DNA of 64,000 nucleotides from Dictyostelium discoideum (GCA_000004695.1 CM000155.2:1696001-1760000); one strand, 5' to 3'; counted from the first letter of the stretch, positions 21,075 to 62,587 are shown. The notes: generated from the sequence alone by a model not told the origin. Translations and numbers: made by a program.

Positions 21075-24000
21075 ATGATTGAAAGTCAAAGGGAATTTAA
21101 TTGTATTGGTGGTGATAATCAGAATGGTGTCGCAGTTATTGGTGTAGGTTTTAAAATCCCATTAGATCTAGAAAATTGTTTATCAAGTCCAAGTGAATTA
21201 TATTCAGCATTATTTAATGAATTTGATAGTGTAACAAAGAATACAAGTTCACGTTGGTCTGATAACTATTTTAAAAATGGTGATATTGTTAGTCTTAGTG
21301 CAGGTTTATTACCACTCAGAGAAATTAAATCATTTGATCCAACTTTTTTCGGTATTAATCCATCCGATGCAGATTTAATTGATCCTCAACAAAGATTATT
21401 ATTAAAATGTAACTTTTTTTTATTTTATTTTTATTTTTATTTTTTTATTATTAACAAATTTAATTAAATAAATATATTAGGTGTTTGGAATGCATTAGAA
21501 GATGGTGGTATTGACCCAATCAGTATTCGTTCATCAGATACTAGTGTCTACATTGGTTGTTCAACTATTGACTATTTTCTTTTAAATAGAAATCCTGTTG
21601 ATCCTCATAATCATGGTATTCAAACCGCAAGTTATTCAATTCCAAATAGAATATCATATTGCTTTGATTTTAGAGGTGAAAGTTTGTTTGTTGACACTGC
21701 ATGTTCATCATCACTAAATGCAGTTCATCTTGGTTACAATTCAATTATAAATTTAAAATCAAAATTATCAATTGTTGGTGGTTCCAATTTAATTTTAGGT
21801 ATGAATTATCTTTTTATTTATTTTTTTTTTTTTTTTTTTTTTGTACTATTATTAATATTATTATTAATATTATTATTATTATTTTTATTTTACTGACATA
21901 TATATATTTCCTAGATCCACAAAATAGTATTTTTTTTTCTAAACAACAGGTGAATGGTCCAAGTGGTAAATGTAATAGTTTTTCAGAAGAAGCAGATGGC
22001 TTTGTTCGTAGTGAGACAGTTGGTGTAGTAGTATTAAAGAATTTAAAAGATGCAATTAAAGATGGTGATAGAATTTATTGTGTAATTCAAGGTTCAAATT
22101 CAAATGTTGACGGAAATTATGAAAAATTAAATTATATTTCACCTTCAAAATTATCACAAGCTGAAAATATTACCAAAGCATTAAAATCAACAAATGGTGC
22201 GGTGAATGCATCTGATATTGATTATTTCGAATGTCACGGTACTGGTACACCAACTGGAGATCCAATCGAATTAGAAGGTATATCAATTGCATTAAATAGA
22301 ACTCAACAATCTACAACATTATCAAATCCACTTTTAATAGGTTCAATTAAATCAAATATTGGTCATGGTGAGGCAAGTAGTGGTATAGCCAGTTTAATTA
22401 AATGTTGTGTAATGTTTAAATATCGTCAATTTTTACCAAATATTAATTTCAAAACACCAAATCCATTAATCAAATTTAAAGAATGGAATTTAAAAGTTGT
22501 AACTGAACCAGTTCCATTCAATAATAATAAACAAACTATTATGGCAATTAATAATTTTGGTGTTTCTGGTAAGATTTTAATATAACAATAATAAGAGCAA
22601 AACAAGATAATCAAACTACTAATATTTACTATTTTTTATTTTTATTAAATAGGATCAAATTGTTGTATTATTTTATCAGAATATAAAAGTAATAACAACA
22701 ATAATAATGATTTTAAAGCAACAACACATTTAAAATCAAAGAAATTTATTATACCATTTTCATCAAATTCCTCAACATCATTAGACAATTATAAATCATT
22801 ACTTTCAAATGAAACAAATAATTTTCAAGATTTTGTTATTAAACAAATTAATAATAAATCAACATCATTAATTCAAAGATCAGTAATCATTGCAAGTAAT
22901 TGGAGTGAATTTAATGAGTCATCAAATGAAATTCAATCAAATATTAAAAAATCAATTATATCTAATATCACAATTAAAAAAAAGAATGCAGTTACAGTAT
23001 TTGTATTTTGTGGTCAAGGTTCGCAATATAATAAAATGGCATTATCATTATATGAAAATGAACACATTTTCAAATCAACAATGGATAAATTAGATAAAGA
23101 ACTATCCAAACACTATGGGTATTCAATTTTAGAAAAATTAAGATCAATTACAGATGAAGATTTAGTAACAATTCATCAACCAATTTTAGCAATTCCAGTT
23201 AATGTAATGGTTCAAGTATCTCTATATGAATTGTATAAACATTGGGGTATTAAATCAGATATTATGGTTGGTCATTCGTTTGGAGAAATCGCTTGCTCTT
23301 ATTGCTCTGGTATGGTTGATTTTAAAACATTATGTTATTTAACATACCACAGATCAGTAGCTCAGAATAAAACAATTGGATCAGGTAAAATGTTATCAAT
23401 TAATATTGGTGCTAAAGAATACTTGGATTCTTATTCAACTAAATATCCATCGGTAGAAATCGCATGTTATAATAGTGAAACATCAATCGTTATTGCAGGC
23501 AATGAAGAATTATTAAATGAAATTTCAAAAGATTTAAAATCAAAAGATATTTTTACAGCAATGTTACCATCATTATCAGCATTTCATACAACACACCAAT
23601 CAGTTATTAAAGATGATATTTGCTCATTGAATTTTAAATCGACATTATCAAAAATAACAGTATTTTCCACAGTCACATCTAATCAGTTTGGTATTAATAA
23701 TAATAATAATAATAATAATAATCAACTTAATTCAAATTACCTTTTTCAAAATGTTATTCAACCAGTTAAATTTAGTGAGACAATATCAAATATATATAAA
23801 TACATTGAATCAAATGATATGGGTAATGAAATAACATTTATTGAAATTGCACCACACCCAACATTACAATATTATTTAAATCAAATGAAGTCACAACAAT
23901 CAGAATACTTTAATAATGGTGAAAAGATTTCAATCTATTCAGCATGTAATAAAAAGAAGAATGATTATAATGAATTTTTAAAAACAATTTCAACATTGTT

Positions 24001-56242: not shown

Positions 56243-57304
56243 TTATTCAATTGTTGGTTGATTCATTTCTGCTTTGTATAATAAAAAAGATTGATAACTT
56301 AAAAGTAGTTTTAAATTTTTATTATTCTCTTTATAATTGTCATGTGATATAATATTAAATATATCTTCATACACAGATCTTATTTGAATTTCTATTTTAA
56401 TTTCACCAAATTCAATATCAACATGATAAGCACGATATCCATATAAATCTGATTTTCTTTCTATTTCAATTCTAAAAAAAAAAAAAAAATATATATATAT
56501 ATTAATACTAACTATTATTATTATTATTATTATTTATTATTTCATAAATTATAAATTAATTAATTACATTTTAAAATAACCATTTAATTCCAATTCTTTT
56601 AATTTTTCAATAATAAAAGAAGTTTTATAATTTGGATTTATAATCATTGAAATACCACATTGATCAAAGATTTGAAACCAGTGCACTATTTTACCGGCAA
56701 TATATGATCTTTTAATTTCTTTTCTTTTCATACTTTCAATTGTTTTTACTCTAGAATAAATTGGTTTATATAAATATTGGTTTGGAATTGATTTTTCCCA
56801 ATAGATTAAAAATTTATTTAATTCAATTGGGAATTCTTTTCTTAATAATTCGGGATAATCAAAATAAAAAATTAAACCTTCAATATTTCCATTTTTTTCA
56901 ATAATATTTGAGTATATGGGGTTTGAATAATTTTTACTATAAATTATATGTTGTTGATGTTGAGGTTGTTGTTGTTGCTTATTAAATGCTTTTGCATTAC
57001 TAAAAATTTTATAATCCCCTTTATTGGTTAGAAAAAAAAAAAAAAAAAAAAAAACCAAGGTTTAATAATTTTTTAATATTTTTTTTAAATTATAAATATC
57101 TTCCAAAACATACCAATATATTAAAATGTAAAATAATATTCCTATTTTTAGAAAATAAAAAAATAAAATAATAAAGTAAATTATAATGAAAAAATAAAAA
57201 AAATTAAAAGTAAATAATAATTATATTAATATAGGATAATTTTTTTTTTTTTTTTTAAGAAAGTATGAAAATTCATTACCCGTAGAAAGTCTTGAAATAT
57301 TCAT
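56243..57304 (-). CDS. Small RelA/SpoT-homologue synthetase-domain protein (small alarmone synthetase-like, (p)ppGpp-synthetase fold), about 234 aa
   Basis: Three minus-strand exons: 57304..57280 (MNISRLST, donor GTAATG), 57018..56568 (acceptor after a CTAAC branch-like site and poly-T; ends ..ELNGYFK, donor GTAATT) and 56471..56243; frames checked, 705 nt in total. Synthetase motifs in order: YSRVKTIESMKRKEIKR (RxKxxxSxxxK), FDQCGISMII (D.xGxR(I/V)), DLYGYRAYHVDIEF (GY(R/Q)SxH) and EIKIEIQIRSVYEDIFNIISHDNYK (E(V/I)QIRT..mh.wAE.eH..YK). No HD hydrolase domain is present. Confidence 0.6.
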
Positions 57305-58061: not shown

Positions 58062-59226
58062 ATGCAATCTAAACAATTTGATGAAGTAGTAGTAGAGGTA
58101 AAACATGTATCAAAACGTAAGGTTTTTTTTTTTAAAAAAAAATAAAATTTGTAGTATTTTTTATTTTTTATTTATTATTTTTTATTTTTTATTTATTTTT
58201 ACTTTTATAAAAGATTATAAGATTGCAGGTAGAGAAGATAGTGTTAAAGCATTGAATGATATACATTTAGCAGGTGATTCAGAGTTATTACCAATTAGAA
58301 GAGGAGAATTTGTAATGTTAAGAGGACCATCAGGTGGTGGTAAAACAAGTTTATTAAATTTATTAGGTACAATCGATAGAGCAACCGAAGGTGTTATAGA
58401 ATTATTTTCAAATCCAATCAATGTAGATTCAACTGATGAATATTTAGCTAAATTAAGATTAGAGAAAATTGGTTTCGTTTTTCAAACTTTTAATTTATTA
58501 GCAACAATGTCTGCTTTTGAAAATGTAGAATTACCAATGATTATATTAGGAAAATTAAATGAAAAAGAAAGAAAAAAGAGAGCAATTGAATTATTAACTT
58601 GTATGTGTATTTTAATTTTTTTTTTTTTTTTAATTAAAATTTGTATTTATTAATCTTTTTTTATTATTTTTTTTTATTATTTTTTTTTTTTAGTGGTTGG
58701 TTTGCAAGATAGATTAGATCATTTACCTTCAGAATTATCAGGTGGTGAACAACAAAGAGTGTATGTAAATAAATATAATAATAATAATAATAATAATTTT
58801 TTTTTTTTTATTTCCAAATTAATTTTAATAATCTTTATTTTTTTTTTTAGAACAATTGCAAGAGCTCTTTCAAATGCACCAGAAATTTTATTATTAGATG
58901 TATGTATTTTTTAAAATATGATATTTTTGGTGGTTCTTTAAATTTGAAGTACTAAAGTAAAAAAAAAAAATAAAAAATAATAGGAACCAACAGGTGATTT
59001 AGATACAAAGAATACAGTTGAAGTTATGGATTTATTATTAGATTTAAATTTAAAGTTAAAGACAACTTGTATTATGGTTACTCACAATCCCGATATTGAA
59101 TGTTATGCTGATAGAATTTTGTATATTGCAGATGGTGTTTTTGAAAAACAAGTATTTAATACTGAACAAACAAGATTAGATTATGATGAATATATCGCTT
59201 ATTTAAATTCTCAAGCTGGTCATTAA
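58062..59226 (+). CDS. ABC transporter ATP-binding protein of the bacterial LolD/MacB/FtsE type (Dictyostelium ABCH-like), with no fused transmembrane domain
   Basis: Five exons: 58062..58116, 58214..58600, 58694..58760, 58851..58899, 58984..59226; donors GTAAGG, GTATGT, GTATGT, GTATGT, with frames checked. The spliced protein is MQSKQFDEVVVEVKHVSKHYKIAGREDSVKALNDIHL..LRGPSGGGKTSLLNLLG (Walker A), a Q-loop FVFQ, signature LSGGEQQRVTIARAL, Walker B ILLLDEPTGDLD and H-loop IMVTHN. Confidence 0.85.
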
Positions 59227-59317: not shown

Positions 59318-61363
59318 TTATTCATTTTTAATATTAATTTGATTATCATTAAAGATATAATTTTGATCATTATTATTATTGTTATTTAATGGGTAAATAG
59401 GAGCGCTGGTTCCTTTTGGAACTGGACAAGCATATTTGGTAGCAATAAAAATTGTAAAATGACAATTCATTTCGTAGACTGCATAAACAACGAATTCATA
59501 TCCACTATCACAATTTAATAAATATTCTGATGTGATTGGGTAATTTTCTGCACAAATTTGAGAAGTGTTATAGTAAAGAGCAATACCTTGGTTTTGTTGA
59601 CCATTAATATTTGTATAGAATTCATAGGAACTTTCATTTTTATAGCCAATTGCTGCAGATCTCTCTCCATTAATATAATTGGTTATACATGATTGAGTTT
59701 CATTAGATTCATTAAGATTATCAATACAATAACTATTAGAAGAACATAAATTGAAATAATACTATTTAATTTTTATTATTATTATTATTATTATTGATAT
59801 TAGTGAGACATTAGTATACTATTACATAATTATTAATTATTAAATATTATTTTTAACTACTTACCATGGTTAATGTATTATTATCCCAGTATTCAAAATT
59901 TGAAGAATCAAGTTGAGAAAGATCTACTACTAAGTGAGGTGTGTAATCGAAAATACATGTATCCATTGGATTTGGTGATGGGTTTGGTGTTGGAGTTGGT
60001 GATGGAGTTGGTGAAGGAGTACGGGTTGGTGAAGGAGTACGGGTTGGTGTTGGAGTACGGGTTGGTGAAGGAGTTGGTGATGGAGTTGGTGATGGAGTTG
60101 GAGTATAACCAACACAAGCACTTACAGTTTCAATGGTAAAGTAATAGGTACAATTTGAGAGATAAAAACTTGAAACTTCAAAACTAGTATTATAACTACA
60201 AACCATATCAAATACAATAGAATTACCTAAACCAGTTTCACAATCACCATTTCCAGAGTTGTATAATAACTCTAAACCTTGTTCTGATACTTGATATTGA
60301 CCAGTGTTTGAATATGAGATTAAATATTCATATGGTGCAATCTTTTGACAAGCTTGAACATCACTATTAAATAAATTGGAACAATACTCATTTGGTGCAC
60401 AGAAATTGAAATAATATTCAACACTTGTTTCGTTATCATAATAAACATAACCTGAATAATCGGAACTAAATAAAATTACAATTGTTAAAATAAATATTAA
60501 AAAAAAGAGAAATTTAAAAATAAAAAATTCATACATACGCAATTAATGGTGATAAATCAATTTCTTGTGATCCAAATTTAATTTGACATGATGATGGGAT
60601 TGGGTTATTTGGTGTTGGAGAAGGGGTTGGGAAAGGAGTTGGAGTTGGTGATGGAGTTGGTGAAGGAGTTGGTGATGGAGTTGGTGAAGGAGTTGGTGAT
60701 GGAGTTGGTGATGGAGTTGGGGTTTGAGTTGGTGATGGAGTTGGGGTTTGAGTTGGTGATGGAGTTGGTGAAGGAGTTGGTGATGGAGTTGGCGATAGAG
60801 TTGGGGTTTGAGTTGGTGAAGGGGTTGGTGAAGGAGTTGGTGATGGAGTTGGTGATGGAGTTGGTGATGGTGTTGGGGTTTGAGTTGGTGAAGGGGTTGG
60901 TAAATATGGACATGCTAAAGAAGAGTGAATAAGAAAATTATAAGTGCATGATGGATTTTCACTTAAACTTGTAACTAAAAACTCTTGTGATGGATCACAA
61001 ACAAATAAAAAGGTATCACTACGATAAGAAGTACCTTCACAAACTAAGTTAGTGGTTGAGTTATAGTATAATAGAATTCCAGTACCATCATCACTTATTT
61101 TATAATTGCCATTTACAAAAGCACCTAATTCATAAGTGTATATTGATTTATGGTTTTCTTGATAAACCTGACAACTTTGAGGTCCAGAATAACCAATGAT
61201 TTTCTCACAAATTAAAGAAACATTACAAAATGAAAAGTAATACTTTTAAAATAAAAAAAAATAATAATCATTAATACATTTACAACTTTTTAAAATTATT
61301 TTTTTAAAATATTGGTATTTACTTGATTACCATTATTATCATTGTATTGATAATCATTTTCGC

Positions 61364-61400
<37 letters not shown>

Positions 61401-61612
61401 AATTTATTATTTATTTTATTATATTATTTTATTTTATTTTATTTTAATTTTAATTTTTATATTTACATCATTAAAGGTGAAAGATTTATTAAAGAACCGC
61501 TACCAGTTGGGAAAATGCATGTTGTTAATGGGTCATTTTCCTTTAAACAAAAAGCATATTGAATTACTGATAATAATATAAAAACTAAAAATGATATTTG
61601 TTTTATATTCAT
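59318..61612 (-). CDS. Secreted protein with three MRH (mannose-6-phosphate receptor homology) domains separated by Pro-Thr/Ser linkers
   Basis: Minus-strand exons: 61612..about 61467 (signal peptide [22 protein letters not shown], donor GTAAAT), a 40-nt micro-exon near 61340, 61203..60539, 60465..59865 (donor GTAAGT) and 59761..59318. Each domain follows the MRH pattern (C.....iDLSPL...Y.......YYFN.C.....C....aC.....Y..G..C..G......f.C........E..C.Y.F...T..AC), for example [18 protein letters not shown].., [33 protein letters not shown] and [32 protein letters not shown]. The linkers are (PTPS)n tracts at 59960-60110 and 60600-60900. No C-terminal TM segment was seen. Confidence 0.5.
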
Positions 61613-61952
61613 TTTATTTTTTTTTTATAACTTAAAAATAATTAAAGGTAAATGAGAATATTTTAAAATATAACATTTTTGTTTTTTTAGTTATTCATAA
61701 AAAAAAAAAAAAAAAAAAAATTTTGACCAAAAGATAACCTGAATTTTTATTTTTCCGGGCCAGTATTTTTTTTTTTATTAAAACTCGCAACAAACACAAA
61801 AAAAAATCGCTAAACTTTTTTTTCTCAGCTTATTTTGATATGAAATCTTTGCCACCTCAGAGTTTTTAAAGCAACGGCCACGATATTTTAATTTTTTATT
61901 TTGTTTTTTACAAAAATGCTTATTTATTTATATTTTTTTTAAATAATAGTGT

Positions 61953-62587
61953 TTAAAAATTTCTTCTCATTGTTACTTTTTCTTTTGGTTCAATAATATT
62001 GTTAGTTGATTCCACAAAAATATCTTTAATTTTGTTTTTCATAATATTGATGTTTGGTTGATTACTATAATTGTTGGTTGTTGGTGTTTGTTGTGTTGTT
62101 GTTGTGCATAATTTATAGTCAGAGCAAAGTGTTTGTGGATTTTCACCATTAGAAATAGCACCAGCAATAATTGGAGCTGCTAATATCATAAAGAATTTAC
62201 ACTTTTTTTTTTTTTTTTTTTTTTTAAAAAAATAAAACAACAAAAGTTAAAATAAATAATAATAAAAAAAAAAAAAAATAATAATAATAATTAATTAATT
62301 ATTATTATTTTTTTTTTTATCAATAATAAAATAAATAAAAATAAACATACCTCCATTGTAATATTTGATGGTACTAAAGTGCAAATATTTTTTAAATCTG
62401 TTTCTAATTGAGCTTTTGTTAAATTATCATTTTTTACAAGGAATTCGCCAAATGAAACAGCAAATTCACATAAATCACAGCCAACTTTTGGTGATGGAGC
62501 TGGTGAGTTAGTTGGAGTAGTGGTTTGTGCAAATGAAATTGAAATGCTACAAATAATTAAAATTAAAGCAATGATTAATTTATTCAT
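61953..62587 (-). CDS. Saposin-like (SapB-domain, amoebapore/Apl-type) secreted protein
   Basis: Exon 1 is 62587..62351 (signal peptide MNKLIIALILIICSISISFA, a PT-rich stretch, then GCDLCEFAVSFGEFLVKNDNLTKAQLETDLKNICTLVPSNITME, donor GTATGT); exon 2 is 62201..61953 (CKFFMILAAPIIAGAISNGENPQTLCSDYKLC..). Together these give the six-cysteine saposin B spacing C-x2-C...C...C...C-x5-C. Confidence 0.6.

Follow-up and report, generated by a model that had tools for sequence, protein, structure and literature searches.

Three CI-MPR-type MRH domains strung on Pro/Thr/Ser linkers in a predicted soluble protein of Dictyostelium discoideum

Introduction

The CI-MPR packs 15 repeats together and carries a transmembrane segment and a cytosolic sorting tail. 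Repeats of this type have eight cysteines each (PMC8717582), and in the CI-MPR itself carbohydrate recognition is confined to repeats 3, 5, 9 and 15 (PMC7481795). MRH lectins hold a terminal mannose by the conserved side chains of a Gln, an Arg, a Glu and a Tyr (PMC9388126), the tetrad written QREY below. Drosophila LERP and the TvMPRs of Trichomonas vaginalis (five MRH domains) have fewer repeats of the CI-MPR type; the cysteines of these repeats are conserved, whereas the Man-6-P-binding residues are missing from most of them (PMC8717582). Both span the membrane as type I proteins, and their cytosolic tails carry sorting motifs. XTP3-B/Erlectin and OS-9, which contain one or two MRH domains, are soluble proteins of the ER lumen and use QREY to read mannose-trimmed N-glycans.

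Lysosomal sorting in dictyostelids seemingly proceeds independently of the methylphosphate and sulfate marks on their glycans, and we know of no endogenous reader of these mannose marks that has been characterized in the group. The marks themselves are placed on terminal mannose of dictyostelid N-glycans (PMC11795075).

Here we describe a gene in a 64,000-nt stretch of the Dictyostelium discoideum genome (the window) that had been predicted, from the DNA alone, to encode a secreted protein with three MRH domains, perhaps a miniature mannose-6-phosphate-receptor-like lectin. In place of 15 packed repeats, its product has three domains (D1–D3) with Pro/Thr/Ser linkers of 44–97 aa between them, and it has neither the transmembrane segment nor the cytosolic sorting tail of the CI-MPR. 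Like LERP and the TvMPRs, it has fewer CI-MPR-type repeats with conserved cysteines, but unlike these membrane proteins it is predicted to be soluble and its linkers are long. Its nearest relatives are in its own dictyostelid family, and its architecture is related to those of LERP and TvMPR.

Results

A single five-exon gene

Spliced translation of positions 59318–61612 gives one in-frame coding sequence of 1935 nt on the minus strand, which encodes 644 aa without an internal stop. The features of the locus are as follows.

59318..61612, minus strand: whole coding region from ATG to TAA, five exons and four introns, 644-aa product
61467..61612, minus strand: exon 1, signal-like peptide (aa 1–22, 61547–61612) and first D1 strands, donor AT/GTAAAT
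61323..61362, minus strand: exon 2, a 40-nt mini-exon that sits between TTTAATAG and GTAAATAC
60539..61242, minus strand: exon 3, rest of D1, whole of linker 1 and start of D2, in continuous frame
59865..60465, minus strand: exon 4, rest of D2, whole of linker 2 and start of D3, in continuous frame
59318..59761, minus strand: exon 5, rest of D3, 32-aa Asn-rich tail and stop codon
60588..60932, plus strand: spurious ORF of 114 aa, antisense reading of linker 1
59873..60139, plus strand: spurious ORF, antisense reading of linker 2

The four introns (104, 80, 73 and 103 nt) are canonical, beginning with GTAAAT, GTAAAT, GTATGT and GTAAGT and all ending in AG, and within this very A+T-rich region their A+T content of 88–97% compares with 62–78% in the exons. 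One minus-strand gene with four introns is what the original prediction had called for, and its junctions at 60539/60465 and 59865/59761 and its donor at 61467 proved exact. Two positions had to be moved: the acceptor of intron 1 lies at 61362 rather than 61340, and exon 3 starts at 61242 rather than 61203, with the mini-exon (61362–61323) added in between. This mini-exon is backed by the D. purpureum ortholog, in which the spacing from the L.xL motif to YFFSFC is exactly as long.

Exons 3 and 4 each span the end of one domain, a linker and the start of the next, so the three domains are physically joined. In exon 3, the C-terminal two-thirds of D1 precedes linker 1 and the first strands of D2, and a six-frame hmmsearch detects MRH halves at both ends of this exon. 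Further exons have no room downstream, since a convergent ABC-ATPase gene ends only ~90 bp past the stop codon, and the same six-frame search finds MRH segments only at 59321–61624 on the minus strand, with no second MRH gene in the 64-kb window. Independent annotations of three relatives likewise show one minus-strand gene at the syntenic position, right after the 266-aa ABC gene (627 aa in D. cf. discoideum, 612 aa in D. firmibasis and 637 aa in D. citrinum), and a split of the locus into two genes finds no footing in either the exons or these syntenic loci. The two plus-strand ORFs lie over the tandem-array DNA of the linkers and are therefore antisense readings of the repeats, as had been supposed.

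Three MRH domains of the CI-MPR-repeat type

The domains lie on the minus strand as follows.

60901..61546, minus strand: D1 (aa 23–176), CIMR-type MRH domain with complete tetrad, introns 1 and 2 inside
60102..60609, minus strand: D2 (aa 274–418), MRH domain with degenerate site (Q, N, L, Y), intron 3 inside
59417..59969, minus strand: D3 (aa 463–612), the MRH domain that diverges most, with I, I, E, F in place of the sugar site, intron 4 inside
61168-70, 61021-23, 60958-60 and 60940-42, minus strand: D1 tetrad codons for Gln87, Arg136, Glu157 and Tyr163

Each domain is ~145–155 aa long and has exactly eight cysteines; all eight columns are invariant among D1–D3 and, compared as cysteine positions, they reproduce the eight-Cys framework of the CI-MPR type in every domain. 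The three are paralogs of one another (blastp E values of 6e-11 for D1–D2, 4e-12 for D1–D3 and 5e-10 for D2–D3), which bears out the description of three cysteine-patterned domains. The landmarks by which they had been recognized also recur in all three, as NLSPL, DLSPL and DLSQL, as YYFSFC, YYFNFC and YYFNLC, and as C.[YF]x8AC in D1, D2 and D3, although the last of these had been written as C.Y.F..T..AC, a literal pattern that fits only approximately.

Profile searches connect these domains to the CI-MPR. Searching 1.84 billion representatives exhaustively with a three-domain profile returned 195 proteins at E<=1e-3, 70 of them at <=1e-10, with CI-MPRs reaching E 7e-46; the list was headed by proteins of 2300–2600 aa with 12–17 matched stretches and the source name CI-MPR. 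The exhaustive search was needed, as a word-indexed search with the three-domain alignment gave no matches, and a search with the full-length protein was uninformative, its PT linkers drawing ~1,700 low-complexity bacterial matches. When a profile built from 18 dictyostelid domains was run against the PDB, it matched all 15 repeats of bovine CI-MPR (6um1; E 2.2e-111), scoring highest on repeats 3, 5 and 9, with CD-MPR (1.6e-5) and glucosidase II beta (5.7e-5) as further matches. Single domains reach the CI-MPR as well, D1 at 2.2e-6 and D2 at 1.5e-6 (phmmer against the PDB, best on domain 3); D3 alone gave no CI-MPR match in the single-domain search and is tied in through D1 (4e-12) and D2 (5e-10).

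Curated models see little of this. The Pfam comparison suggested with the original prediction gave only sub-threshold hints, PRKCSH_1 on D1 (14.6 bits, cut-off 23) and CIMR on D2 (18.4 bits, E 0.0025, cut-off 22.5), with nothing on D3 or on the full-length protein, and no domain reached the gathering cut-off of PF00878 (CIMR), PF13015 (PRKCSH_1), PF02157 or PF09451. A gathering score is an operational criterion and not a defining feature of the MRH superfamily, and the syntenic genes of the three relatives likewise have no Pfam match on record.

Structure prediction points the same way. The AlphaFold model of D3 (pLDDT 93.9, pTM 0.88) was built on a 61-sequence alignment made up of MRH homologs, as AF2 alignments here were, so that the models and the homology claim are not wholly independent; the best 50 Foldseek matches of this model are MPR/MRH structures only, the closest being IGF2R domains 11–14. 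A high-confidence model of the D1 core (from aa 51) also matches MRH-fold structures only, XTP3-B and OS-9 are among the structural matches, and both models are predicted to form the flattened beta-barrel of the MPR type. Because the best 50 matches of the D3 model are all MPR/MRH structures, and because the profiles lead to CI-MPR repeats, we find no sign of a different cysteine-rich fold, which would have spoken against the original prediction. By sequence, fold and cysteine framework, D1–D3 belong to the MRH/P-type lectin superfamily and are of the CI-MPR-repeat type.

One complete sugar-site tetrad

Among the three domains, only D1 has the complete tetrad, as Q87, R136, E157 and Y163, and in alignments these four fall on the tetrad positions of CI-MPR domains 5 and 9. 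D2 has QNLY instead, its Asn aligned with Arg391 of CI-MPR domain 3, and D3 has IIEF, with identical residues in D. cf. discoideum and D. citrinum. Accepted MRH domains, most CI-MPR repeats included, often have no tetrad, so the tetrad marks lectin activity rather than membership. QREY is necessary but not sufficient for sugar binding, which would be expected in a single domain, D1, at most. The orthologous D1 of D. purpureum is QREY too, at only 37% overall identity.

Directly following the loop-C cysteine, D1 has Glu131, and its D. purpureum counterpart has Ser. We take this position to be that of Ser386 and His1329, phosphate contacts in CI-MPR domains 3 and 9, and Glu131 would lend phosphomonoester binding no support, although this is a weak indication. 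The label of mannose-6-phosphate-receptor-like lectin thus stands for the CI-MPR type of the domains, but the word lectin fits one domain at most, because only D1 keeps the tetrad, and nothing points to a preference for phosphomannose.

Signal peptide, linkers and tail

Outside the domains, the protein consists of an N-terminal signal-like peptide and three further parts.

60610..60900, minus strand: linker 1 (aa 177–273, 97 aa), (PTPS/PTQT)n
59970..60101, minus strand: linker 2 (aa 419–462, 44 aa), (PTPS/PTRT)n
59321..59416, minus strand: C-terminal tail (aa 613–644, 32 aa), polar and Asn-rich

Aa 1–22 contain the only hydrophobic stretch of the protein, whose sole hydrophobic 19-mer is aa 5–23 (Kyte-Doolittle 2.1), in agreement with the signal peptide originally proposed. 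We hold, with the same moderate confidence as for the overall reading given below, that the product enters the secretory pathway through this N-terminal signal peptide, which would presumably be cleaved.

Runs of almost pure P/T/S of 97 and 44 aa separate the domains, as predicted, and derive from arrays of a 12-nt tandem unit at 60640–60901 (21.8 copies) and 59967–60101 (11.8 copies). In the 104 aa from 177 to 280, which include linker 1, there are 46 P, 29 T and 20 S. From this composition, linker 1 is probably O-glycosylated, and both linkers would be expected to be extended and O-glycosylated; the protein also has 11 N-glycosylation sequons.

A hydrophobicity scan and inspection of the C-terminus revealed no membrane span, GPI-like segment or HDEL in the 644-aa protein. 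The C-terminus is polar, and its motif NI[FL]xND[NL]QI[NY]I recurs in relatives. We looked for the type I membrane topology with cytosolic sorting tail of the known receptors and did not find it, and for this reason the product does not qualify as a true mannose-6-phosphate receptor.

Orthologs and the dictyostelid family

Within the syntenic loci, exon 5 is 83% identical in D. cf. discoideum, 79% in D. citrinum and 52% in D. firmibasis, and the position of intron 4 (…NNTLTM/GT) is kept in D. citrinum. The neighboring P450 exon is 92% identical in D. cf. discoideum, 81% in D. citrinum and D. dimigraforme, and 76% in D. firmibasis. Across three relatives, dN is 0.074, 0.099 and 0.332 in the D3 part, as against 0.032, 0.063 and 0.114 in the P450, so that at the protein level the MRH gene evolves two to three times faster. 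The dN/dS of the D3 part, 0.21–0.74 against 0.23–0.25 for the P450, comes from only ~110–130 codons, and its high values are noisy. Judged by these rates, the gene is under constraint yet fast-evolving.

Relatives automatically named 'MRH domain-containing protein' in UniProt occur in Dictyostelium, Polysphondylium, Heterostelium, Acytostelium and Tieghemostelium and thus in all major dictyostelid groups. The ortholog of D1 and D2 in D. purpureum, F1A239 (DICPUDRAFT_84266; 37% and 40% identity), has a signal peptide, a short TP linker and QREY in D1 only; the D. discoideum protein differs in its additional third domain and in linkers that are far longer. CYY_005925 and CYY_007853 of P. violaceum are soluble four-MRH chains of the same domain family. 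One protein of this name, DDB_G0283243, has been reported with the change Asp413Tyr (PMC12954983); residue 413 is Ala in our model, and the strand shows no obvious fit either, although the two could still be the same gene.

Family members come as soluble chains of two and four MRH domains (P0127, P0143, P0145), as single domains and as a MACPF–MRH fusion (P0224). Three others (P0188, P0208, P0235) combine MRH, an S/T/P linker and a Cys-rich stalk with a C-terminal hydrophobic end that has no cytosolic tail and apparently resembles a GPI-anchor signal. None of the dictyostelid relatives examined has a CI-MPR-like tail. A soluble multi-MRH protein, of interest in an organism said to lack classical MPRs, is what the sequence predicts, but with other MRH proteins in dictyostelids, some of them apparently membrane- or GPI-attached, the gene is one member of a family and not a lone MPR substitute.

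Discussion

We favor, with moderate confidence, a secreted and soluble beads-on-a-string glycoprotein in which D1 serves as a mannose-type glycan-binding module. With no anchor and no ER-retrieval signal, the product would be soluble and would probably be located outside the cell or in the endocytic lumen. D1 is a probable glycan-binding module because the four mannose-holding residues are kept, and its likely ligands would be mannose-terminated N-glycans; D2 and D3 are most likely non-lectin binding or spacer modules, as most CI-MPR repeats are, and the PT linkers would serve as extended tethers carrying O-glycans. Such a protein would act as a glycan-binding adaptor rather than as a membrane sorting receptor. 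Four features agree with this reading: the protein has no anchor and no retrieval signal, its linkers are mucin-like, its relatives are built as surface or secreted proteins, and its gene evolves fast.

A smaller but real chance goes to a matrix, adhesion or signaling glycoprotein without lectin activity, in which the MRH barrels are protein-binding or structural modules, much as IGF2R domain 11 binds IGF2. Two of the three domains have no sugar-binding residues, D3 is structurally closest to IGF2R domains 11–14, fast evolution is typical of extracellular interaction proteins and the PT linkers are like those of extracellular Dictyostelium glycoproteins; the QREY of D1, however, is intact both here and in D. 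purpureum, and its retention at 37% identity argues for selection on the sugar site. If that site is used, we still consider it rather improbable that the protein is a soluble analog of the MPRs, whose D1 would bind Man-6-P-OCH3 or sulfomannose glycans of Dictyostelium lysosomal enzymes and which would escort or capture these enzymes, either in the Golgi and endosomes through a membrane partner or after their secretion. The CI-MPR type of the domains, the full tetrad in D1 and the family profile's highest scores, on the sugar-binding repeats 3, 5 and 9, speak for this idea; the missing transmembrane segment and cytosolic sorting tail speak against it, as does Glu131 at the point where CI-MPR domains 3 and 9 presumably contact phosphate. 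Long mucin-like linkers and GPI-like relatives suggest a surface or extracellular setting instead, and at least a dozen other dictyostelid MRH proteins are equally good candidates. From the literature, methylphosphate is found on terminal mannose of N-glycans in all dictyostelids examined (PMC11795075), and the CI-MPR has been reported, by the title of ref. 46 in PMC7481795, to recognize Dictyostelium lysosomal enzymes, but the titles of refs 25 and 31 in PMC11795075 indicate that altered or sulfated N-glycans are not essential for lysosomal sorting in Dictyostelium.

Two further readings carry far less weight. One is a quality-control lectin in the ER lumen, comparable to OS-9 and XTP3-B, that is soluble and has several MRH domains of which one is inactive. 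It would parallel XTP3-B in its combination of active and inactive domains, and the structural matches include both XTP3-B and OS-9; we regard it as very improbable, and the lack of a retrieval signal fits secretion. An artefact, be it a pseudogene, two genes or chance ORFs in repeat DNA, is essentially excluded. The gene model was built from sequence alone, the exact protein is not on record in the protein collection and the repeats do generate many spurious ORFs, but the spliced frame is intact, the introns are canonical, the exons bridge the linkers and the structure models are of high confidence; moreover, the position of intron 4 is kept in D. citrinum, and single genes of similar size are annotated in three relatives. 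Exact look-ups of three neighboring ORFs of the window gave nothing on record either, even though orthologs at 76–92% identity are present, and the gap would therefore seem to lie with the database rather than with the gene.

Returning to the secreted glycan-binding adaptor, one long shot is that D1 could be an endogenous reader of the anionic N-glycan marks of dictyostelids (methylphosphomannose and/or sulfomannose), capturing or cross-linking the organism's own secreted lysosomal-type glycoproteins. If true, it would be the first cognate receptor for Man-6-P-OCH3, a modification that has gone without an assigned function since the 1980s. The MRH label is already present as an automatic name on the orthologs, at least a dozen paralogs are equally plausible readers, and function is not derivable from sequence alone in a family none of whose dictyostelid members has been functionally studied. 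Within it, the gene described here is a clean candidate reader, since it is predicted to be soluble and to carry only one active site, that of D1. More broadly, the locus indicates that CI-MPR-type repeats, overlooked by the curated models of Pfam, are used outside membrane sorting receptors and on mucin-like linkers, and a secreted or surface family of this type would be an obvious place to look for readers of anionic glycans.

Local context of the MRH gene

The tail that follows the third MRH domain (D3) of the 644-aa protein carries a short conserved motif, which reads QNYILNDNQIYIN in D. cf. discoideum (L001, about 21577-21640) and ENILQNDLQINI in D. firmibasis (L002, about 21428-21470). 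This motif may serve as a sorting or interaction peptide. In D. firmibasis, it is retained despite just 52% identity in D3 itself. The tail and the neighbouring genes lie as follows:

Window 59321-59416, minus strand: tail C-terminal to D3 (aa 613-644), with the short conserved motif
Window 61953-62243, minus strand: final exon of the MRH gene's direct upstream neighbour, with a weak saposin-B-type match
Window 58105-59226, plus strand: small soluble ABC-type ATPase gene, convergent with the MRH gene
Window roughly 56.3-57.6 kb, minus strand: equivalent of the RelA_SpoT-match gene
L002 18339-19360 (D. firmibasis): RelA_SpoT-match gene
L003 18097-19390 (D. citrinum): RelA_SpoT-match gene

The upstream neighbour may encode a further protein of the secretory or lysosomal kind; its final exon gives a SapB_2 match that falls under the Pfam cut-off (E 0.009). 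On the other side, the stop codon of the ABC-type ATPase gene lies about 90 bp from that of the MRH gene; the ATPase carries a Walker A motif and an LSGGEQQRV signature (ABC_tran, E 7e-11), and its length in relatives is 266 aa. Between the RAD24-like and ABC ATPase genes, a further gene is recorded with a RelA_SpoT match (PF04607) in D. firmibasis and D. citrinum, and Pfam returned no match for the window ORF at 56564-57058 taken alone. Going by that domain match, this social amoeba gene would encode a small protein resembling alarmone synthetases.

Those of the window's own proteins that were looked up in protein collections are all absent there, and orthologues from sibling species are present at 76-92% identity. 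D. discoideum AX4 is represented solely by a paralogue, at 44%, of the P450 that a gene neighbouring the MRH gene encodes. The records of the source genome therefore seem to be missing from these collections.

MRH architectures across dictyostelids

Among the dictyostelid MRH-family proteins, P0224 (Heterostelium album PPL_07800, 644 aa), which UniProt names 'MACPF domain-containing protein', contains one CIMR-type MRH domain (aa 314-463); this putative pore-forming protein therefore also has a module of the lectin fold. Several others (P0188, P0208 and P0235, from P. violaceum, D. dimigraforme and D. firmibasis) share an architecture of MRH domain, S/T/P linker, Cys-rich stalk and terminal hydrophobic stretch, the last of which looks like a GPI signal and is followed by no cytosolic tail. 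Gene numbering (RB653_007862/007866, ACTA71_004011/004016 and CYY_001760/001769) suggests tandem clusters.
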